Sequence record: PQ464628.1
DNA length: 40,547 nucleotides
Strand: one strand, 5' to 3'
Source of the DNA: Escherichia phage MirsaeidiM_Esher2
A program made the translations under genes and the position numbers. The notes beneath the pieces are model-generated. The model saw only the letters and a list, made by a program, of their open reading frames with translations. It made no database searches and was not told the DNA's origin. Positions 2,297 through 11,388 of the stretch are shown here, in pieces; the first letter of the stretch is position 1, and each line of letters opens with the position of its first letter.

Positions 2297-2390
2297 CTGA
2301 ATGAATAACTATAGGCGAAAACTGAATTAATAAGCAGTTAGTAACCTATAGTTACTACCAGACTAACCTACTGTTTTATAAGGAGTTTGG

Positions 2391-2413
2391 ACTTAACTAT
2401 CACTATAGGGAAG
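2391..2413 (+). promoter_or_regulatory. phage-RNAP promoter, phiOR-like (ACTTAACTATCACTATAGGGAAG)
   Basis: Matches the recurring 23-bp motif found 11 times in the window; lies after gene 19 and before the gene 19.5-like ORF, as phiOR does in T7. Confidence 0.7.
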
Positions 2414-2592
2414 ACCCCCGGTTACTTATAGTATTACTGTAGTGAATATACATATGCAGACTTTATGCAAGACCTTAGGAGGCAGACTCCGAGTTCTTAC
2501 CTAAGGCTTGCACCGATGGAAGGAGGGCGATATTAATCATAATCCCTCCAATACAGATAGTAAAGACCATAGATACAGGAGGTATGTAGCAT

Positions 2593-2751
2593 ATGGCAAA
2601 GACCAAAGCTGTACTTAAAGCTCTGGCGACCAATCGAGCTACATACAGGTTTCTTGCTGCTGTTCTACTTACTGCTGGCGTTACTACTGGAAGTCAGTGG
2701 GTCGGGTGGGTCGAGACTCTCGTATGTTCTCTGGTGTCTGAGTGTCATTAA
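2593..2751 (+). CDS. 19.5: small protein, T7 gp19.5-like (52 aa)
   Basis: ATG with SD AGGAGG 10 nt upstream; hydrophobic 52-aa product with RxTYRFL motif resembling recalled T7 gp19.5; below the 60-aa cutoff of the ORF track. Confidence 0.5.
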   Translation: MAKTKAVLKALATNRATYRFLAAVLLTAGVTTGSQWVGWVETLVCSLVSECH

Positions 2752-2860
2752 CGCCGTAATGGTAACAATCAACGAAAGGAGGTAGGGATGGACGAGGAGT
2801 CTTATGGGTCGTTCTCTGACGAAGATTATCAGACGGAGTGGGAATACTCGCATTGAAGAC

Positions 2861-2901
2861 CTAAGGTCAGTTCATAGCTGACGCTACTCTACTGACCTTA
2901 G
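2861..2901. repeat. perfect 10-bp inverted repeat (CTAAGGTCAG / CTGACCTTAG) with 21-nt loop
   Basis: Arms at 2861..2870 and 2892..2901 are exact reverse complements; located in the right-end non-coding region. Confidence 0.6.
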
Positions 2902-2988
2902 CTACTGTAGTCAAGGACTTTAGGTAACACCTTAAGAGAAGCTCACTTAGGGTCATCCTACTTATTGGTCCATCCTAGTGTCGCCTGA

Positions 2989-3025
2989 CCTACGGTCCTT
3001 GACCTACAGTGGCTGTGGCCTACAG
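2989..3025. repeat. short repeats CCTAC(A/G)G x3, right-end side
   Basis: CCTACGG at 2989, CCTACAG at 3003 and 3019; same motif as the array at 3266..3367; analogous to the CCTAAAG-type repeats near T7 ends. Confidence 0.5.
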
Positions 3026-3064
3026 TAGTGACGATGAGTTTTGGACCAAAAGTTTGAGACCACA

Positions 3065-3265
3065 TCTCACAGTTCAAGAACCTCAAGTCTCCCCATAGGC
3101 CCTCTTTCAGTCCAGACCAAAGGCCCTACCCAAGTCTATCATAAGGTTAGACCGATGGTCAAGACTTCAGGTCAACGATAGGTCTAGGCTATGGCTTAGG
3201 GAAGGACGATAGGTGGTGACTATTGGTCTGTCTTTGAGTCTCTATCTGTATCAGACCTTGAGTCA
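3065..3265. repeat. candidate terminal-repeat region (collapsed single copy) with genome end near 3065
   Basis: Starts TCTCACAGT, as the T7 left end does (TCTCACAGTGTACGG, recalled); flanked on both sides by CCTACAGT repeat arrays; boundaries approximate. Confidence 0.3.
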
Positions 3266-3322
3266 CTACCTACAGTCTAACTACCTACAGTCTAACTACC
3301 TACAGTCTAACTACCTACAGTC
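3266..3322. repeat. tandem 15-bp repeat CTACCTACAGTCTAA (3 full copies + 12-nt partial)
   Basis: Read directly; two further CCTACAGT copies at 3344..3367; produces the artefactual SNYLQ-repeat ORF 3213..3410. Confidence 0.9.
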
Positions 3323-3478
3323 ATCGACCATCGGTAATGCTGCTACCTACAGTCTAAACCTACAGTTAATAGACACAATGGCTATAGACTTAAGGTCTAA
3401 GACATGTTAGTCAAAGACTATATCCTCTTACACCATGGGGCCGACGATAGCTTAATCAATATTATTTCAAATTACCTA

Positions 3479-3507
3479 TTGACTATAGGTCCAGACTATG
3501 GCCTAAT
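3479..3507 (+). promoter_or_regulatory. candidate sigma70 early promoter (A1-like)
   Basis: TTGACT at 3479..3484, 17-nt spacer, weak -10 CCTAAT at 3502..3507; resembles T7 A1 context (TTGACT...CCTATAGG) as recalled. Confidence 0.35.
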
Positions 3508-3789
3508 AGCTTCCGTCAACACGACACGGCAACAACCGGATAGTGAAGACGCCGGTGTCATCCCGGTTAAGTAGACAGCCTGATAAGTCATACGAACAAC
3601 AGGCAGATGACAATAAGGTAGTAAGGTCGCTGAGGGCTTCCACTTCAGCAGGTCGGAAAGGTCCTAAAACCTAACGAGAGTCTGACCAGCTCGCCAAGTC
3701 TGCCACTGAGGTGGATAACCAGAGGAGGCAACGTGTCGCCCACTGAGGGGCTACAGCTCACAGTTTAGGTTAACAGGCTAAACAAATGC

Positions 3790-3819
3790 TTGACAAGATG
3801 TAACGATAAGATGTAATAT
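3790..3819 (+). promoter_or_regulatory. sigma70 early promoter (A3-like): TTGACA-18-TAATAT
   Basis: -35 TTGACA 3790..3795, -10 TAATAT 3814..3819 preceded by TG; surrounding sequence resembles T7 A3 (TTGACAACATGAAGTAA...TACCACATG). Confidence 0.6.
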
Positions 3820-3942
3820 TTACCACATCGAAACAACGGTGATGACCAACACTGAAATGGTCTACCTGAAGTCCTCTGACTGAAGGGAATGCTCTTTAAC
3901 AATCTGGATAAACTCTTAATGTGCGCCGATAGCGACTAACTA

Positions 3943-3990
3943 CAGGGCCTTTGAGTCTACATCTGAAGGCCCTGACTGATAGCCACTAAC
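3943..3990 (+). promoter_or_regulatory. 9-bp-stem hairpin plus conserved box CCTGACTGATAGCCACTAAC (RNase III R0.3-like site candidate)
   Basis: Stem 3943..3951 / 3966..3974 is perfectly complementary; no T-tract follows; immediately upstream of the first early ORF. Confidence 0.5.
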
Positions 3991-3997
3991 TTAAAGG

Positions 3998-4252
3998 ATG
4001 GACACTATGAAACACTTAAGCACAATCACTAATCGCAATGAAGTATTCGTGAACACTAAAGGTTATGCGTGGATTCAGCTTAAAGAGATGAGAGGAGCGC
4101 GTCACCGTGTGGTAGTGCGCAAGGTATCAAGCAAGCAGTTCAGCAACTACAGCGTCGATACTGTGCGTATAGACAACGAGACATACCTGATAGACGCGCA
4201 GATAACCGTGAGTCCTACAGTGGGCGTCTCAGCTCCTTATTTCGCTAACTGA
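3998..4252 (+). CDS. hypothetical early protein (84 aa; basic)
   Basis: First ORF downstream of the sigma70 promoters; SD AAGGA favours the second ATG at 4007; no similarity to T7 proteins I can recall. Confidence 0.55.
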   Translation: MDTMKHLSTITNRNEVFVNTKGYAWIQLKEMRGARHRVVVRKVSSKQFSNYSVDTVRIDNETYLIDAQITVSPTVGVSAPYFAN

Positions 4253-4265
4253 GAGTGATTAACTA

Positions 4266-4307
4266 CAGGTCGTTAGAATCATAGCGGCCTGACTGATAGT
4301 CACTAAC
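4266..4307 (+). promoter_or_regulatory. hairpin plus second copy of box CCTGACTGATAGTCACTAAC
   Basis: 7-bp stem 4266..4272 / 4285..4291 (one G-U); box 4288..4307 is 19/20 identical to 3971..3990; directly upstream of the ocr-like gene. Confidence 0.45.
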
Positions 4308-4335
4308 ACATAATTAACTTTGAGAGGATATAACT

Positions 4336-4839
4336 ATGGAACGTAATGCTAACGCATACTATGAGCTGCTGGCTGCAACCGTTGAGGCATTTATCGAGCG
4401 TATTCAGTACGACCATCTGACTCAAGATGATGACTACAGCGATGCGCTGCATGAGGTCGTAGACGGTCAGGTTCCACACTATTACCACGAGATTTTTACG
4501 GTGATGGCTGCTGATGGTATAGACCACGAGTTCGAAGACTCTGGGCTGATGCCTGAAACCAAGGACGTAACGCGTATACTACAAGCTCGCATCTATGAGG
4601 CGCTTTATAACGATGTGTCTAATAGCTTGGATGTAGTCTGGTTTGAGGCTGAAGAGGCAGACGAAGAGGATGAATATTGGGTAGTTGACGCTAAAACAGG
4701 CGCAATAATTGTGCAAGCTGTAGCTCTTGAGGTCGCTACTGCATGTGCCAAGGTCAACTATGCAATAGGTCGCCACCTGAAGGTGGAAGACATCAATGAT
4801 AACGTAGTGTTCGACCCTGCGGCTGAGGACTGCGAGTGA
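4336..4839 (+). CDS. 0.3: Ocr-like DNA-mimic anti-restriction protein with C-terminal extension
   Basis: 167 aa; residues ~40-95 ([43 protein letters not shown]) match recalled T7 Ocr; acidic; about 50 aa longer than the 117-aa T7 Ocr. Confidence 0.8.
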
Positions 4840-4988
4840 TGGTAACTTATGGTCTCTGCCAGCACCACGTCGCCAACGCCCGGCTTATGGTCAAGACCGG
4901 GCGGTTAACCCATGATGAGACTATGCGTCTCCTGAAGGTGGTCTACAAGCGCCGCAAGCGTATTCACGACAGTTTGCACGCTGAGTGA
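4839..4988 (+). CDS. hypothetical small basic protein (49 aa)
   Basis: ATG overlaps the ocr stop (TGATGG); open 49 codons; below ORF-track cutoff; Cys/His-containing, basic C-terminus. Confidence 0.35.
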   Translation: MVTYGLCQHHVANARLMVKTGRLTHDETMRLLKVVYKRRKRIHDSLHAE

Positions 4989-4995
4989 TAAACGA

Positions 4996-5021
4996 GAGGT
5001 CATCGACTGATAGGTGGCCTC
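4996..5021 (+). promoter_or_regulatory. hairpin GAGGTCA / TGGCCTC with GACTGATAG in the loop
   Basis: 7-bp stem incl. one G-U pair; shares the AGGTCA/TGGCCT core with hairpins at 8711, 16060 and 40490. Confidence 0.4.
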
Positions 5022-5054
5022 AAAGATTACCACTTACATTAATAGGGGTTAACT

Positions 5055-5144
5055 ATGAGTGTGGGATATTGGGTATGCCTAGCGCCAGTTATCTGGATGA
5101 TAGGCTATGGGTTATACGACTGTATTAAACGGAAATCACTATGA
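5055..5144 (+). CDS. hypothetical 29-aa hydrophobic peptide
   Basis: ATG with SD AGGGG upstream; stop overlaps next ATG (ATGA); very short, so weak. Confidence 0.25.
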   Translation: MSVGYWVCLAPVIWMIGYGLYDCIKRKSL

Positions 5145-5338
5145 GTCTTGCACTATTGATAGCCATAGGCTATGGACTTATCGCCTACGTGCTGGTGAGA
5201 GACATCAACAAAGCGCGTAAAGTCTACAAATTCAACTATGTACGTCTGGGCCGCTGGACTGTACGTCAACCTAACGGACGATTCATGCGCAACTTAGCGA
5301 ACGTCTGGGATATAGCAACTATTGGGAGCAAACTGTAA
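5141..5338 (+). CDS. hypothetical small membrane protein (65 aa)
   Basis: N-terminal hydrophobic segment LALLIAIGYGLIAYVLV; start overlaps preceding stop, stop overlaps next start (TAATG). Confidence 0.45.
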   Translation: MSLALLIAIGYGLIAYVLVRDINKARKVYKFNYVRLGRWTVRQPNGRFMRNLANVWDIATIGSKL

Positions 5339-5598
5339 TGAAAACCGTATACATTAACAAACCATCTAGCCATAGCCGTGTAGAGCAAATAGAGCGTGAC
5401 ATGTTCTTACATCGCCGCATGAGGGCTGAGGGCCATAAGTACGAACTGATGAGTCTGGCGTTTGGTGGACGACCGATCACTGACGATGGTAAACTTTTAG
5501 TCTCAGGCTGGAAGGCGATAGACCAACGGTCAACCATCAAGCACACGACTCACGGTGACTTCAGCCATCTCCACGCTAACCAACTGATATGCAAGTGA
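5338..5598 (+). CDS. hypothetical early protein (86 aa)
   Basis: Translationally coupled to the upstream ORF; occupies the position where T7 has gene 0.7 but is far too short for a kinase. Confidence 0.5.
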   Translation: MKTVYINKPSSHSRVEQIERDMFLHRRMRAEGHKYELMSLAFGGRPITDDGKLLVSGWKAIDQRSTIKHTTHGDFSHLHANQLICK

Positions 5599-5603
5599 TT
5601 ATG

Positions 5604-5626
5604 ACTTAACTATCACTATAGGACTC
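5604..5626 (+). promoter_or_regulatory. phage-RNAP promoter-like sequence directly upstream of the RNAP gene
   Basis: ACTTAACTATCACTATAGGACTC; identical to the phiOR-like site over 20 nt (5603..5622 = 2390..2409). Confidence 0.55.
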
Positions 5627-5695
5627 AAGGTCTAAGACTCCAAGTGAAAGACCAAAGAGACTTTAAGTGAAAGACTAATAACAAGGACTTTAAGT

Positions 5696-8377
5696 ATGAG
5701 CATCATCTCTATTGATAAACACGACTTCTCTGATGTGTCTAACACCATTGAGCCGTTTAACCTGCTGGCTGACCACTACGGGCAAGACCTTGCAGTCAAG
5801 CAGCTTCAGCTTGAGCATGAGGCATACACTGAAGGCGAGCGACGTTTCATCAAGAACCTTGAGCGACAGACTGAGCGCGGGGAACTGGCAGACAATCAGG
5901 TCGCCAAGCCTTTGATGCAGACTCTTGTACCTAAGATTGCGCAAGCAGTCAAGGAGTGGCACGAAGGCCAAGACGGGAAGCTGTCAACCTCTCGTCCTAG
6001 CGTAGCGTTCACCATGTTGAGCACTGAAGAGAAGGCCGTCAAGGACCGCTCTATGCGCATCTCCTGTGAGTCCGCTGCGGTTATCATACTGAAGGTCATA
6101 CTCTCCAAGCTGGTCAAGCCCGAAGGGATACCGATTACACCTATGGCCTCCGCGATAGGTCGCACACTTGAGGACGAAATCCGCTTCGGTCGCATCCGTG
6201 ACAAAGAGAAAGAGCACTTCAAGAAGGCGATAGCTGATAACCTGAATAAGCGGGCCGGGGCGTCCTACAAGAAAGCCTACATGCAAGCGGTCGAGGCGTC
6301 CATGCTGGAGCAAGGCCAACTGGAAGATGCGTGGGGGACTTGGAGTCCTACAGAGGCTGTCCACGTTGGCATCAAGATGCTTGAGATTGTCATCCAGTCA
6401 ACACAACTGGTCGAGCTTAAGCGTTACGGTGCTGGCAATGCAGCGGCTGATGTCGAGATGGTCCACCTGTCAGACTTCTGGGTCAAGAAGATGGCACAAC
6501 GTGGATTCAGCCTTGCGGGTATCGCACCAGTCTATCAGCCTTGCGTCGTTCCACCTAAGCCGTGGACGGGTGTCGTAGGCGGTGGTTACTGGGCCAAAGG
6601 TCGCAGACCATTACCGCTGATTCGCTTAGGCTCTAAGTCTGCGGTAGCACGTTACGAAGACGTGTACATGCCTGAAGTCTATGAAGCTGTGAACATCATT
6701 CAGAATACACCTTGGAAAGTGAACAAGAAGGTTCTGGACGTGGTGAACATGGTCGAGAAGCTGAACAACACGCCTATTGATGACATCCCTCAGATGGAAC
6801 CGCTGAAGCCTGAGGACTATGCGGGTGAGACTGAGGAGGAACTCAAGGCATGGAAGAAAGCTGCTGCTGGTATCTATCGCCGCGAGAAGGCCAGACAGTC
6901 ACGCAGGTTGTCACTGAGCTTTATCGTTAACCAAGCGAACAAGTTCTCTCAGTTCAAGGCTATATGGTTCCCGTACAACATGGACTGGCGCGGTCGCGTC
7001 TACGCTGTGCCGATGTTCAACCCTCAGGGTAACGACATGCAGAAGGGTCTCCTGACTCTGGCAGTTGGCAAGCCTATTGGTGCTGACGGTTTCAAATGGC
7101 TAAAGGTACACGGTGCAAACTGCGCGGGTGTCGATAAAGTCACCTTCGAGGAGCGCATCAAGTGGGTGGAAGACAACCACGACAACATCATGGCTGCTGC
7201 TAAAGCACCTATGGACAGCATTGAGTGGTGGGGAAAGTTAGACTCTCCGTTCTGTTTCCTCGCGTTCTGCTTCGAGTATGCTGGCGTAATGCGCCATGGC
7301 CTGTCTTACTCCTGCTCGCTGCCGATAGCGTTCGATGGGTCCTGCTCTGGGATTCAGCACTTCAGCGCGATGCTTCGTGACCACATCGGTGGACATGCGG
7401 TAAACCTGACGCCTTCCGGTAAAGTCCAAGACATCTACCGCATCGTGTCCGACCGCATTGAGGAGGAGCTTAAAGTCCTGCTGGTTAACGGCACGGACAA
7501 CGAGATGGTAACTCACGAGGACAAGAAAACTGGTGAGATTACCGAGCGTCTCAAGCTGGGGACACGAGAGCTGGCCCGTCAGTGGCTGACCTACGGTATG
7601 TCACGCAAGGTTACTAAGCGCTCAGTCATGACTCTGGTCTACGGGTCGAAAGAGTACGGCTTCGCAGACCAAGTTTACGAGGACATCGTGATGCCCGCGA
7701 TTGACTCAGGGTCTGGCGCTATGTTCACCGAACCAAGCCAAGCGTCCCGCTTCATGGCTAAGATGATTTGGGAAGCTGTGAGCGTGACCGTAGTTGCTGC
7801 GGTAGACGCTATGAAGTGGCTTCAAGGTGCTGCCAAGCTGCTGGCTGCTGAAGTGAAAGACAAGAAGACTGGAGAAATCCTGAAGCCTTGCCTTCCGGTA
7901 CACTGGGTCACGCCTGATGGGTTCCCGGTCTGGCAGGAATACCGCAAGAAGGATACCACGCGTCTGAACCTGATGTTCTTAGGGTCATTCAACCTTCAGC
8001 CTACCGTCAACAAAGGCACGAAGAAAGAGCTGGATAAGCACAAGCAGGAGTCAGGCATTAGCCCGAACTTCGTCCACTCACAAGATGGTAGCCACCTCCG
8101 CAAGACTGTAGTCCATACTCACCGCAAGTATGGCGTGATGTCGTTCGCAGTGATTCACGATAGCTTCGGGACCATCCCGGCTGACGCTGAGTATCTGTTC
8201 CGTGGGGTCCGTGAGACTATGGTAGAGACCTACCGCGACAACGATGTGCTGCTTGACTTCTACGAGCAGTTTGAATACCAGCTTCACGAGAGCCAGCGCG
8301 ATAAGTTGCCAGAGCTTCCGAAGAAAGGTAAACTGAATATCGAAGACATCTTGTCTTCAGACTTTGCATTCGCCTAA
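5696..8377 (+). CDS. 1: single-subunit DNA-directed RNA polymerase (T7 gp1 homolog)
   Basis: 893 aa; colinear with recalled T7 RNAP (PFNLLADHYG, GRIRD, QPCVVPPKPWTG, DGSCSGIQHFSAM, HDSFGTIPADA, ending SDFAFA). Confidence 0.97.
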   Translation: MSIISIDKHDFSDVSNTIEPFNLLADHYGQDLAVKQLQLEHEAYTEGERRFIKNLERQTERGELADNQVAKPLMQTLVPKIAQAVKEWHEGQDGKLSTSRPSVAFTMLSTEEKAVKDRSMRISCESAAVIILKVILSKLVKPEGIPITPMASAIGRTLEDEIRFGRIRDKEKEHFKKAIADNLNKRAGASYKKAYMQAVEASMLEQGQLEDAWGTWSPTEAVHVGIKMLEIVIQSTQLVELKRYGAGNAAADVEMVHLSDFWVKKMAQRGFSLAGIAPVYQPCVVPPKPWTGVVGGGYWAKGRRPLPLIRLGSKSAVARYEDVYMPEVYEAVNIIQNTPWKVNKKVLDVVNMVEKLNNTPIDDIPQMEPLKPEDYAGETEEELKAWKKAAAGIYRREKARQSRRLSLSFIVNQANKFSQFKAIWFPYNMDWRGRVYAVPMFNPQGNDMQKGLLTLAVGKPIGADGFKWLKVHGANCAGVDKVTFEERIKWVEDNHDNIMAAAKAPMDSIEWWGKLDSPFCFLAFCFEYAGVMRHGLSYSCSLPIAFDGSCSGIQHFSAMLRDHIGGHAVNLTPSGKVQDIYRIVSDRIEEELKVLLVNGTDNEMVTHEDKKTGEITERLKLGTRELARQWLTYGMSRKVTKRSVMTLVYGSKEYGFADQVYEDIVMPAIDSGSGAMFTEPSQASRFMAKMIWEAVSVTVVAAVDAMKWLQGAAKLLAAEVKDKKTGEILKPCLPVHWVTPDGFPVWQEYRKKDTTRLNLMFLGSFNLQPTVNKGTKKELDKHKQESGISPNFVHSQDGSHLRKTVVHTHRKYGVMSFAVIHDSFGTIPADAEYLFRGVRETMVETYRDNDVLLDFYEQFEYQLHESQRDKLPELPKKGKLNIEDILSSDFAFA

Positions 8378-8391
8378 CAGGAGAGAGAGCT

Positions 8392-8607
8392 ATGAAATTT
8401 GCACACAAGCATACTGGCGTTAATGGTGGGACTCAAATCGTGACCGTAACAGAACACAACGGCAAGGGTCTGGTGAAGACCACGGTCATCCCTACCGAGA
8501 TGTCCAAGCAGCTTAACATCCCGTTCAAGACTCTTGTAGATCTGGTCGAGTCCAGCCATGAGAAGTACCTGAAGGACGCAGTGTCCAAGCTGGAGCAGGC
8601 CAAATGA
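8392..8607 (+). CDS. hypothetical protein (71 aa) between RNAP and promoter phi1.1
   Basis: Strong SD AGGAGA 8 nt upstream of ATG; no T7 counterpart recalled. Confidence 0.55.
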   Translation: MKFAHKHTGVNGGTQIVTVTEHNGKGLVKTTVIPTEMSKQLNIPFKTLVDLVESSHEKYLKDAVSKLEQAK

Positions 8608-8681
8608 CAGACCTACAGTTACTGGCCTTGTGGCTAGGAGCACTCGCAGTATTCACTTTAATCCAACGCAGAAGAGGTTAA

Positions 8682-8704
8682 CCTAAACTATCACTATAGG
8701 ATTA
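8682..8704 (+). promoter_or_regulatory. phage-RNAP promoter (CCTAAACTATCACTATAGGATTA)
   Basis: Consensus 23-mer; upstream of the gene 1.1-like ORF. Confidence 0.8.
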
Positions 8705-8747
8705 GACTCAAGGTCATGACTCAAAGTCGTGGCCTTCATGATTAACC
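8705..8747 (+). promoter_or_regulatory. RNase III-type hairpin candidate (R1.1-like)
   Basis: Upper stem AGGTCA 8711..8716 / TGGCCT 8730..8735 with 13-nt loop; motif TAGACTCAAGGTCAT...GTGGCCTTYATGRTTA shared with 16049.. and 40481.. Confidence 0.45.
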
Positions 8748-8777
8748 CTAAATAAACACTACTGGAGATTTAACCTT

Positions 8778-8957
8778 ATGTATCAGAATACTATCAACTT
8801 CGAGCGCATCCGTGAACGTCAGCAGACTGAAGGTTACATTCCGAAGGGTCGCAAGCTGAACAAGACTAAACGTGGTGGTGGCGTGAAGGGTGCTTTCCGT
8901 AATGCTGAAGGTAAAGACTCTCTGGTCAACCAAGAGAAATACTTCGTAGGAGCATAA
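8778..8957 (+). CDS. 1.1: small basic protein, T7 gp1.1-like (59 aa)
   Basis: ATG with GGAG upstream; contains KGRKLNKTKR as recalled for T7 gp1.1; below ORF-track cutoff. Confidence 0.6.
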   Translation: MYQNTINFERIRERQQTEGYIPKGRKLNKTKRGGGVKGAFRNAEGKDSLVNQEKYFVGA

Positions 8958-8961
8958 CCAA

Positions 8962-9225
8962 ATGGGCCGACTTTATAGTGGCAACCTCAACGCTTTCAAA
9001 GCGGCGTGTAACAGGCTCTATCAGTTAGACTTCGCTGTCATATCTCAAGAGTTTCAAGACTATACGTCACGCCAAGAGTGCATGAAACTCAGGGTGGAGG
9101 ACCGAGCTGGTAACATCTTCGCGCTTGAGACCTTCGCACACTACGATGAAGACGTGCTGTATAATACTGCAACAGACTACCTCAACGGTCTCGCTGACCA
9201 TCTCGACACATGGAGCAAAGCATAA
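8962..9225 (+). CDS. 1.2: gp1.2-like protein (dGTP triphosphohydrolase inhibitor in T7)
   Basis: 87 aa; MGRLYSGNL..AFKAA..YDEDVL matches recalled T7 gp1.2; SD AGGAG. Confidence 0.85.
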   Translation: MGRLYSGNLNAFKAACNRLYQLDFAVISQEFQDYTSRQECMKLRVEDRAGNIFALETFAHYDEDVLYNTATDYLNGLADHLDTWSKA

Positions 9226-10256
9226 TGACAACTATTAAAACCAACCCGCACCGCGCTGTAGATTACTCTGAGTATGGCATTAAGAAGGCACTGGAAGCAG
9301 CCGGGTCTCTGGAAGCTGAAGTGAAGTACGATGGTGTGCGGTTGAACCTTCCAGTCTTCCCATCAGGCGAGACCCAATGGTTGAGCCGTGAGTCTAAACC
9401 ACTTCCTTCCCTTAGCTGGATGAACACATCCGGTGAGGACATTGGGGCGACCAAGGCAAGCGACTGGCGGTGGTTCCTGAAGCAAGCTGGATATGAGGGG
9501 ACTGGCCTGATGATTGATGGTGAGGTCATGGTAAAGGGTGTAGACTTCAACACGTCTTCTGGCCTCATTCGCACGAAGTATGTCAAGTCTAAAAACTGCG
9601 CCCTCCACGATGGTGATTGGGACCTCAAGTCCAAGACTACTCAGTTCCGGCTGGACCGAGACCGTATCAAGGTGGTCGTCTATGGTATCGTGGACCTTAA
9701 CGTCATCCTCGACCCGAAAGCCGAAGGTCCTATCCATAGCGTCACCCGCCTGAAGGCCGAAGCTATCGTCCCTCTCCTTCAGAAATACTTCCCGGAAATC
9801 GACTGGGTTCTGTCTGAGAGTCATACAGTGTTCAACCTTGAGTATCTTCGTGATTTGTACGAGGAGAAGCGAGCAGATGGACATGAAGGTCTGGTAGTCA
9901 AGGACCCACTGGGCAAATACAAGCGTGGTAAGAAGTCTGGTATGTGGAAGATGAAGCCAAGTGAAGAGGCGGATGGTCACGTTGTTCGCCCGGTGTGGGG
10001 AACAGAAGGTCTAGCCAACGAAGGTACGGTCATCGGCTTCGACGTTATGCTCGAGAACGGGATGGAGGTCTCCGCAACTAACATTAGTCGCGCCCTTATG
10101 ACCGAGTTCACGGAGAACGTTAAGTCAGACCCTGACTACTACAAGGGGTGGGCTTGCCAGATTACCTACATGGAGGAGACACCAGATGGCTCATTGCGAC
10201 ACCCCTCGTTTGACCAGTGGCGCGGGACGGAAGATAACCCTACCATTAAGAGCTAA
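9225..10256 (+). CDS. 1.3: ATP-dependent DNA ligase (T7 gp1.3 homolog)
   Basis: KYDGVR adenylation motif, MVKGVDFNT, EGHEGLVVKDP, KSGMWKMKP, DGSLRHPSF; start set at the ATG overlapping the gp1.2 stop (GGAG 9 nt upstream); ORF track starts at 9210. Confidence 0.93.
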   Translation: MTTIKTNPHRAVDYSEYGIKKALEAAGSLEAEVKYDGVRLNLPVFPSGETQWLSRESKPLPSLSWMNTSGEDIGATKASDWRWFLKQAGYEGTGLMIDGEVMVKGVDFNTSSGLIRTKYVKSKNCALHDGDWDLKSKTTQFRLDRDRIKVVVYGIVDLNVILDPKAEGPIHSVTRLKAEAIVPLLQKYFPEIDWVLSESHTVFNLEYLRDLYEEKRADGHEGLVVKDPLGKYKRGKKSGMWKMKPSEEADGHVVRPVWGTEGLANEGTVIGFDVMLENGMEVSATNISRALMTEFTENVKSDPDYYKGWACQITYMEETPDGSLRHPSFDQWRGTEDNPTIKS

Positions 10257-11134: not shown

Positions 11135-11233
11135 ATGGAAAAGCCGAGTGAGTGGTGCGAGCGTAAATTTGAGGAGACAGGTAACGTCGATTACCTTCAG
11201 CTCTACAACTTATGGAAGGAGCGTGGTCTATGA
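11135..11233 (+). CDS. hypothetical 32-aa protein (gp1.8 position)
   Basis: ATG with GAGGTG upstream; stop overlaps the gp2 start (ATGA). Confidence 0.35.
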
Positions 11234-11388
11234 CTGACGTAGAGAAGAAATACATCGTTGAGCTTGAGGGTCGCGTTCAGTCCTTCGAGGTTCCGGTGTA
11301 CGCAAAGTCTCTTGAAGAGGCTACCCTGAAGTCCCAAGAGTATGAGGACGCTGGGTTTGTGGTAGGACGGATTCGTCCTGAGACCTAA
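11230..11388 (+). CDS. 2: gp2-like inhibitor of host RNA polymerase (52 aa)
   Basis: [14 protein letters not shown]...GF.V.RIRP resembles recalled T7 gp2; stop TAA lies inside the next promoter. Confidence 0.7.

Follow-up and report, generated by a model that had tools for sequence, protein, structure and literature searches.

Two groups of overlapping small genes in the early region of a K1F-like Escherichia phage, including a predicted diverged relative of T7 gene 0.4

Gene organization of the early region

The window analysed in this study is the whole 40,547-nt stretch of Escherichia phage MirsaeidiM_Esher2 DNA (PQ464628.1), which, as judged from its sequence, is a K1F-like genome of the T7 group in circularly permuted form. 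The region from 4250 to 5700 was 99% identical to that of phage Pipis and ~93% identical to that of phage K1F, and it matched 206 phage records, most of them from Kayfunavirus. On the + strand, the features of this region follow each other in the order of R0.3 hairpin, ocr, 49-aa gene, R0.5 hairpin, 29-aa gene, 65-aa gene, 86-aa gene, phage promoter, and gene 1. The ocr gene (gene 0.3, 4336..4839, + strand) encodes a 167-aa protein with 50% identity to T7 ocr, the DNA-mimic anti-restriction protein, and was matched by PF08684 (3.6e-30) and phrog_2568 (4e-54). Gene 1 (5696..8377, + strand), which was taken from the ORF list and from the annotation of K1F and Pipis, encodes the single-subunit RNA polymerase of 893 aa. 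Between these two genes, the four small ORFs named in the preliminary description were present at 4839-4988 (49 aa), 5055-5144 (29 aa), 5141-5338 (65 aa), and 5338-5598 (86 aa), and the last of them was indeed the largest ORF of the interval. The length of 49 aa is counted from the ATG at 4839, while the ORF list gives 50 aa from the GTG at 4836.

The three stop/start overlaps that had been described were also found in the sequence as TGATG (4837-4841), ATGA (5141-5144), and TAATG (5336-5340), but the four ORFs do not form one chain as had been proposed. The first overlap joins ocr to the 49-aa ORF, with the ATG of the 49-aa gene sharing its A with the TGA of ocr, and 66 nt (4989-5054) separate the 49-aa ORF from the 29-aa ORF, so that the genes fall into two groups, ocr to 49 aa and 29 aa to 65 aa to 86 aa. 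Within the second group, the ATG of the 65-aa gene overlaps the stop codon of the 29-aa gene (ATGA), and the ATG of the 86-aa gene overlaps the stop codon of the 65-aa gene (TAATG). The comparative check suggested earlier showed that the overlaps were conserved across ~20 related genomes and were not accidental. The 49-aa gene was overlapped by the preceding gene by 1 or 7 nt at each of the 18 loci with a scorable start (18/18), and this held with ocr or with another 0.3-slot gene upstream. The overlap between the 29-aa and 65-aa genes was 4 or 1 nt (ATGA or TAATG) and was kept wherever the 29-aa ORF existed. The gene after the 65-aa ORF started on its stop codon with an overlap of 1 nt at 20 of 20 scorable loci; the gene itself varied among the 86-aa form, 108- or 130-aa variants, and an inserted endonuclease VII, while the overlap was constant. 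Such overlaps are common in these genomes, since in Pipis an overlap of any kind is seen at ~19 of the ~50 junctions between adjacent genes, and at 12 of them it is 1 or 4 nt long, and T7 has like overlaps at 0.3/0.4 (1 nt) and 0.5/0.6 (4 nt). Homology and the geometry of the junctions point to translational coupling at the overlaps.

The exact core motif of a phage-RNAP promoter, AACTATCACTATAGG, was located on the + strand at 2395..2409, upstream of the early region and at a position analogous to that of T7 phiOL, and again on the + strand at 5608..5622, where it delimits the block on its downstream side. The second core lies 89 nt upstream of the start codon of the RNAP gene, with the same motif and distance in 16 of the 17 relatives. 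The motif occurred exactly 8 times on the + strand of the window, against 1.05 occurrences expected by chance. The motif scan detected no phage promoter between 2395 and 5608, and the assignment of the small genes to an early class I position, upstream of the RNAP gene, was borne out. A terminator scan of 2300-5800 gave no hit, an Rfam scan of 2300-9300 gave nothing relevant, and PADLOC returned zero matches among the small proteins of the block.

Selection was analysed in a sample consisting of the window, 15 IMG/VR relatives, K1F, and Pipis. All four small ORFs were under purifying selection in their own frame only, and the remaining two frames showed pN/pS values of 0.75-1.96. The ratio in frame was 0.32 for the 49-aa ORF (0.8-2.0 out of frame), 0.39 for the 65-aa ORF, and 0.36 for the 86-aa ORF; the values of the 29-aa ORF are given below.

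Hairpins at predicted RNase III sites

An interrupted hairpin homologous to R0.5 of T7 and T3 was found at 4982..5036 on the + strand (MFE -22.4 kcal/mol). It sits in the 66-nt gap and also includes the final codons of the 49-aa gene together with the stop. The hairpin aligned with the stretch of T7 between genes 0.4 and 0.5 (1430-1490) and with the T3 stem-loop annotated as R0.5; in this alignment the flanks were conserved and the apical sequence was different, and the T7 and T3 segments folded alike, with z scores of -3.0 for the window, -3.05 for T7, and -3.5 for T3. It was at least 90% conserved in 17 of 17 relatives and always lay ahead of whichever gene opened the second group.

A second interrupted hairpin, at 4250..4308 on the + strand just upstream of ocr, is a candidate RNase III site at the R0.3 position. 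Its MFE was -24.7 kcal/mol (z = -3.6), none of the shuffles folded as well (0/200), and R0.3 is annotated at the equivalent place in the T3 record. The 5' UTR of gene 1 (5590-5700) folded no better than shuffled sequences (z = -0.7), and an R1-type site is therefore not claimed. The two groups of genes, each apparently coupled, would naturally be read as two messages processed by RNase III. The hairpins were too conserved within the genus for covariation evidence. In phage ASO2B, the annotators called the equivalent hairpins terminators.

The 49-aa gene and the T7 gp0.4 family

The 49-aa gene (4839..4988, + strand) corresponds to K1F gp0.35, with 92% identity, and its product appears to be a divergent protein of the T7 gp0.4 family according to profile matches, a common Pfam accession, and synteny. 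The protein falls in phrog_5058, which T7 gp0.4 matches at 9e-5, and phrog_25044 was matched by both proteins. Comparison of the two family alignments using hhalign gave a Prob of 91% and an E of 1.2e-6; a second run with larger alignments gave a Prob of 56% and an E of 1.2e-4, and all of the column-shuffled controls were lower (20/20, at most 5%). Reciprocal HMM searches between the 49-aa and gp0.4 families detected 42/42 and 52/52 members, and the precomputed Pfam accession PF26807.1 was common to 52/52 relatives of the 49-aa protein and 43/43 relatives of T7 gp0.4. The relationship is remote, with ~30-34% identity over 41 residues. The 49-aa gene and T7 gene 0.4 both begin on the stop codon of gene 0.3 (the T7 start coordinate is 1278), and both proteins end in "AE-stop" within the R0.5 stem. 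This homology implied that gene 0.4 was retained in the window and not replaced.

The AlphaFold model of the 49-aa protein (pLDDT 92) showed a two-helix hairpin formed by helices 8-20 and 25-47. The nearest structural neighbours of this model in BFVD beyond its own family were T7-group phage proteins of 43-54 aa, with weak E values of 0.015-0.1, and a sequence search of the PDB gave nothing significant.

T7 gp0.4 is described by Kiro et al. (2013) as an inhibitor of FtsZ that blocks host cell division. Infection with K1F produces filaments with ~four Z-rings and mislocalised FtsZ, according to a study that describes K1F as a phage that "lacks the 0.4 genes", reports no BLAST similarity, and leaves the responsible peptide unknown (PMC9372555, 2022). 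The published statement rests on BLAST only and is contradicted by the profile methods. Owing to the 92% identity of K1F gp0.35 and the homology to gp0.4, the 49-aa protein, or gp0.35 in K1F itself, is the obvious candidate for the peptide that mislocalises FtsZ. By homology with T7 gp0.4, its helical hairpin would bind FtsZ and block host division, and such binding, if it occurs, would explain the multi-Z-ring filaments of K1F infection. The gene thereby offers a direct candidate that makes the small open question of K1F and FtsZ testable.

Only about a dozen positions are common to the 49-aa and gp0.4 families, the early proteins of T7-group phages diverge fast, and the K1F authors saw no BLAST similarity to gp0.4, which leaves some room for a 49-aa protein that shares the ancestry of gp0.4 and acts on another target, with the FtsZ effect of K1F arising from, for example, the 65-aa or 86-aa protein. 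We consider this rather unlikely, because the family accession and the genomic position are the same as those of gp0.4, the 49-aa model predicts a helical hairpin, and the filamentation phenotype of T7 is also seen with K1F (PMC9372555).

The 65-aa and 86-aa genes

The 65-aa gene (5141..5338, + strand) belongs to the family of K1F gp0.37 and T3 gp0.6, and its product is a predicted single-pass membrane protein. The protein was 98% identical to K1F gp0.37, and T3 gp0.6 matched it by blastp at 1e-9 with 40% identity. Both matched phrog_2385 over the full length, at 5e-32 for the 65-aa protein and 9e-30 for T3 gp0.6. Residues 1-19 had a hydropathy of 2.32, corresponding to an N-terminal transmembrane helix, and the net charge of the protein was +9. 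The length, the N-terminal transmembrane helix, the basic tail, and the position downstream of R0.5 are shared with T3 gp0.6, of which the 65-aa protein is, on these comparisons, a homologue. The two regions differ in that gene 0.6 of T3 lies directly after R0.5 and is followed by gene 0.65 and the kinase, whereas in the window the 29-aa gene stands before the 65-aa gene and the 86-aa gene after it. The gp0.6 of the T7 type, which belongs to a different PHROG from that of T3, is missing from the window. The 65-aa gene was present in 222 phage records. It is labelled "0.6" in record DQ111067, and the annotators of Pipis noted a BLAST match to T3 gene 0.6.

The 86-aa gene (5338..5598, + strand) corresponds to K1F gp0.38 (87% identity) and to phrog_7066, and it was present in 218 phage records. 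The protein is basic and His-rich, with a net charge of +5 and 7 His, and its C-terminal half is conserved with the motif GDFSHLHANPLICK. The family comprised 121 clusters, all from contigs of ~40 kb or fragments and none with a Pfam domain. A profile search among 1.84 billion proteins gave 14 representatives, eight of which were inspected; seven were small and unannotated, and one was a protein of 1574 aa built of a repeated unit, which was taken as an assembly artefact. The AlphaFold model, based on an alignment of 47 sequences, had a pLDDT of 55 and was unreliable, and the PDB sequence search gave nothing significant. No homologue of the 86-aa protein was found in T7 or T3, and it had no similarity to gp0.7. 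The protein belongs to a narrow orphan family specific to the clade.

Absence of the gp0.7-type kinase

The absence of a gp0.7-type kinase, which had been claimed for the interval between ocr and the RNAP gene, was established for the whole window. The best E of tblastn with T7 and T3 gp0.7 on the window was ~0.5 (0.47-0.74), and the best E of a three-kinase HMM and phmmer over all 669 six-frame segments was 0.47, while the positive control, phage IMM-002, was detected at 1.3e-35. In this genus the kinase represents an optional cassette: 44 phage records had it at 60% identity or more, compared with 218 for the 86-aa gene. In Kayfunavirus IMM-002 and GW1, the kinase is encoded alongside the 65-aa and 86-aa proteins, which implied that neither of these two proteins substitutes for it. 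In T7 itself, gp0.7 is non-essential. A gp2-type inhibitor of host RNA polymerase was found in the window at 11212..11388 on the + strand (PF16857 RNA_pol_inhib, 2.7e-20). The loss of gp0.7 may be tolerated because gp2 would shut off the host RNA polymerase and ocr would give defence evasion, both genes being present here. The published kinase JSS1_004 of Escherichia phage JSS1, a full-length homologue of gp0.7, was not found in the early region of KX689784, in which no kinase was detected, and this lead was dropped.

Four phages, IMM-002, Dev2, GW1, and B1, share with the window the RNAP, the genes of the 65-aa and 86-aa families with their 1-nt overlap, and R0.5-like hairpins. They differ in having a SAMase in place of ocr, in the missing gp0.4 homologue, and in a 244-aa kinase-only relative of gp0.7 upstream of the 65-aa gene.

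The preliminary description held that the four ORFs replace the 0.4-0.7 block of T7, which was wrong as the 49-aa protein is, by the evidence above, a diverged gp0.4, the 65-aa protein a homologue of T3 gp0.6, and R0.5 is kept. The stronger version of this reading, in which a novel cassette took the place of the whole block and brought new shut-off functions to compensate for the loss of the kinase, would be in keeping with the absence of the kinase, with the lack of T7 and T3 homologues for the 86-aa and 29-aa proteins, and with the basic character of the 86-aa protein, as the shut-off domain of gp0.7 is said to be basic as well; nevertheless, it is largely refuted by the two homologies and the retained hairpin, and the 65-aa and 86-aa proteins adjoin the kinase in IMM-002 and GW1 and the 86-aa protein does not resemble gp0.7 in sequence, which makes it very improbable.

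A paper on the T7 kinase (Nature 2026) tied the depletion of Ser/Thr/Tyr in early proteins to carriage of the kinase. Between the window and T7/T3, the small early proteins showed no clear difference in this depletion, and the values of the RNAP were 0.134 vs 0.123.

The 29-aa micro-protein gene

The 29-aa gene (5055..5144, + strand) encodes a hydrophobic micro-protein with the basic C-terminus KRKSL and a best 19-residue hydropathy of 1.47, and a conserved Shine-Dalgarno-like GGGG/GGAG lies upstream of it. Profile checks had been proposed for the small ORFs; they yielded matches for the 49-aa protein (gp0.4 family) and the 65-aa protein (T3 gp0.6 family), while PHROG and Pfam searches with the 29-aa protein gave none. 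A homologue of the peptide was not found in T7, T3, or K1F. It had no blastp match to T7 gp0.5, which belongs to phrog_16572 and is like the 29-aa peptide only in its slot, size, hydrophobicity, and ATGA junction.

Our tblastn results showed that the peptide was present in 93 phage records, with identity down to ~60% and with its length kept. In frame, the ORF had a pS of 0.48 and a pN of 0.13, giving a ratio of 0.27, compared with ~1.1-1.2 out of frame, and this purifying selection in its own frame only indicated that the ORF is a real gene. The Pipis annotation misses the ORF, and two more records have no annotated gene there; the gene therefore represents a conserved and selected micro-protein missed by several annotations. 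That some of the small ORFs, and above all this one, are chance frames in a leader or spacer with incidental overlaps is scarcely credible, since the gaps in annotation, the want of a family match, and the K1F slot, in which gp0.36 stands and the 29-aa ORF is lacking, are outweighed by the selection in frame, the conservation of the peptide and its length, and the conserved Shine-Dalgarno-like sequence with the ATGA/TAATG junction.

Comparison with K1F, Pipis, and T7

The closest annotated systems were K1F (AM084414) and Pipis (PV714130). In K1F, genes 0.3, 0.35, 0.36, 0.37, 0.38, and 1 are annotated in the same order as in the window. Like the window, both phages have the overlaps at ocr/0.35 and 0.37/0.38 and the phage promoter 89 nt ahead of gene 1, and both lack a kinase. 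Pipis, with the same gene order, is near-identical to the window. The difference from K1F lies in the slot after R0.5, which in K1F is occupied by gp0.36, a two-helix membrane protein of 55 aa unrelated to the 29-aa peptide. The DNA in this slot was replaced between K1F and the window, and some relatives carry both gp0.36 and the 29-aa gene.

The window shares with T7 the ocr gene, a gene of the gp0.4 family starting on the ocr stop codon, the R0.5 hairpin, and, after this hairpin, a gene for a small hydrophobic peptide with an ATGA overlap with the next gene. It differs from T7 in lacking the gp0.7 kinase/shut-off protein and in having the additional 86-aa gene. Before gene 1, there is a phage promoter in the window, whereas the T7 record has the E. 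coli promoter C.

Taken with the retention of gene 0.4 and R0.5, these comparisons make it highly probable that the block, which is collinear with its T7 and T3 counterparts except for the missing kinase, is the standard class I (early) region of a Kayfunavirus of the K1F type. The arrangement is typical of the genus and mosaic, and it was already annotated in K1F as gp0.35 to gp0.38. As a known, genus-typical, and mosaic block, it is ordinary and of low interest; as a genome feature it is minor, since this is how the early region normally looks in a well-sampled genus, and the K1F annotation shows that the kinase is absent. On the practical side, phages of the K1F type serve as agents against E. 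coli K1, which gives knowledge of their host-takeover genes some value.

Proposed expression of the block and the first slot of the second group

In the proposed working of this standard early region, the host RNA polymerase would transcribe the region as a single early RNA, and RNase III would cut it at the R0.3-like and R0.5 hairpins, giving one message with ocr and the 49-aa gene and another with the 29-aa, 65-aa, and 86-aa genes. The first cistron of each message would have its own Shine-Dalgarno site. At the downstream cistrons, ribosomes would terminate and restart at the stop/start overlaps, leading to co-expression of the products, and the 29-aa and 65-aa products would insert into the inner membrane.

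A more speculative suggestion, which we regard as doubtful, is that the trio of the second group is a group-specific, membrane-anchored module for host takeover or anti-defence whose members are made in a fixed ratio. Such a module would consist of the 29-aa membrane micro-peptide, the 65-aa single-pass membrane protein, and the 86-aa basic soluble protein, and the swapping of non-homologous membrane peptides in its first slot would tune it to the host. The first slot after R0.5 was occupied by gp0.5 in T7, by gp0.36 in K1F, by the 29-aa peptide, or, in the relative L010, by a peptide of 34 aa.

Cassette organization of the early region

Small cassettes, with conserved hairpins as their boundaries, make up a mosaic early region. 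In the early loci of eight related phages (L012-L018 and L020), optional additional cassettes were found after the 49-aa gene and before the R0.5 hairpin, and the ORFs carried in this interval among these loci included a conserved one of 41 aa (beginning MYQITYSSEQ), one of 115 aa with weak helix-turn-helix matches, and one of 66 aa.

At the junction after the 65-aa gene, an endonuclease VII gene (PF02945), which probably encodes a homing endonuclease, separated the 65-aa family gene from the 86-aa family gene in two relatives (L018, 2510-2932; L038, phage IMM-002, 2720-3142), an insertion that left the 1-nt overlap of the 65-aa stop codon with the following start codon intact. The 86-aa family itself was represented by three N-terminal length variants, of 130 aa in L009, L011 and L013, of 108 aa in L012 and L014-L020, and of 86 aa in the window (5338-5598). 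The C-terminal ~70 residues were common to all of them, and every variant started on the stop codon that ends the 65-aa gene.

Altered forms of the smaller genes were also observed among the relatives. In L016 (2600-2743), a deletion joined the 29-aa ORF in frame to the last 20 residues of the 65-aa protein, and in L014 the start codon of the 49-aa gene, near 1325, was replaced by ATA.

Promoter and leader of gene 1

The start codon of the RNAP gene was preceded, at a distance of 89 nt, by an exact phage-RNAP promoter core, AACTATCACTATAGG (window 5608-5622), and the same core occurred in the window at 2395, 8686, 20592, 23431, 24430, 28974 and 36653. Of 17 relatives, 16 kept the core before the RNAP gene with unchanged spacing; phage GW1 (L019), whose RNAP N-terminus was only 76% identical, had AACCCTCACTATAGG at this position. 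In the records of T7 and T3, no phage promoter is listed immediately ahead of gene 1. A promoter placed here may let RNAP stimulate its own synthesis by positive feedback. Within the gene 1 leader, the 5' untranslated region at window 5636-5695 contained the short repeated motifs AAGTGAAAGAC and GGACTTTAAGT, each twice, and no significant structure was predicted in it.

Annotation of related records and the left-end repeat

In phage ASO2B (L039), the annotators of the record called three early hairpins rho-independent terminators, at 317-352 (the R0.3 position, immediately upstream of ocr), 1117-1149 and 1555-1590. Since the window hairpins are homologous to the RNase III sites of T7 and T3, sequence comparison suggests that these would be RNase III processing sites instead. 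In phage LM33_P1 (LT594300.1, 1624-1770), the 49-aa gp0.4-like homologue was annotated, almost certainly in error, as "Phage protein kinase".

At about 3213-3410 of the window, in the non-coding left-end region that precedes the early genes, one ORF translation contained YLQSN four times (...YLQSNYLQSNYLQSNYLQS), which implies that the DNA here carries a short tandem repeat.
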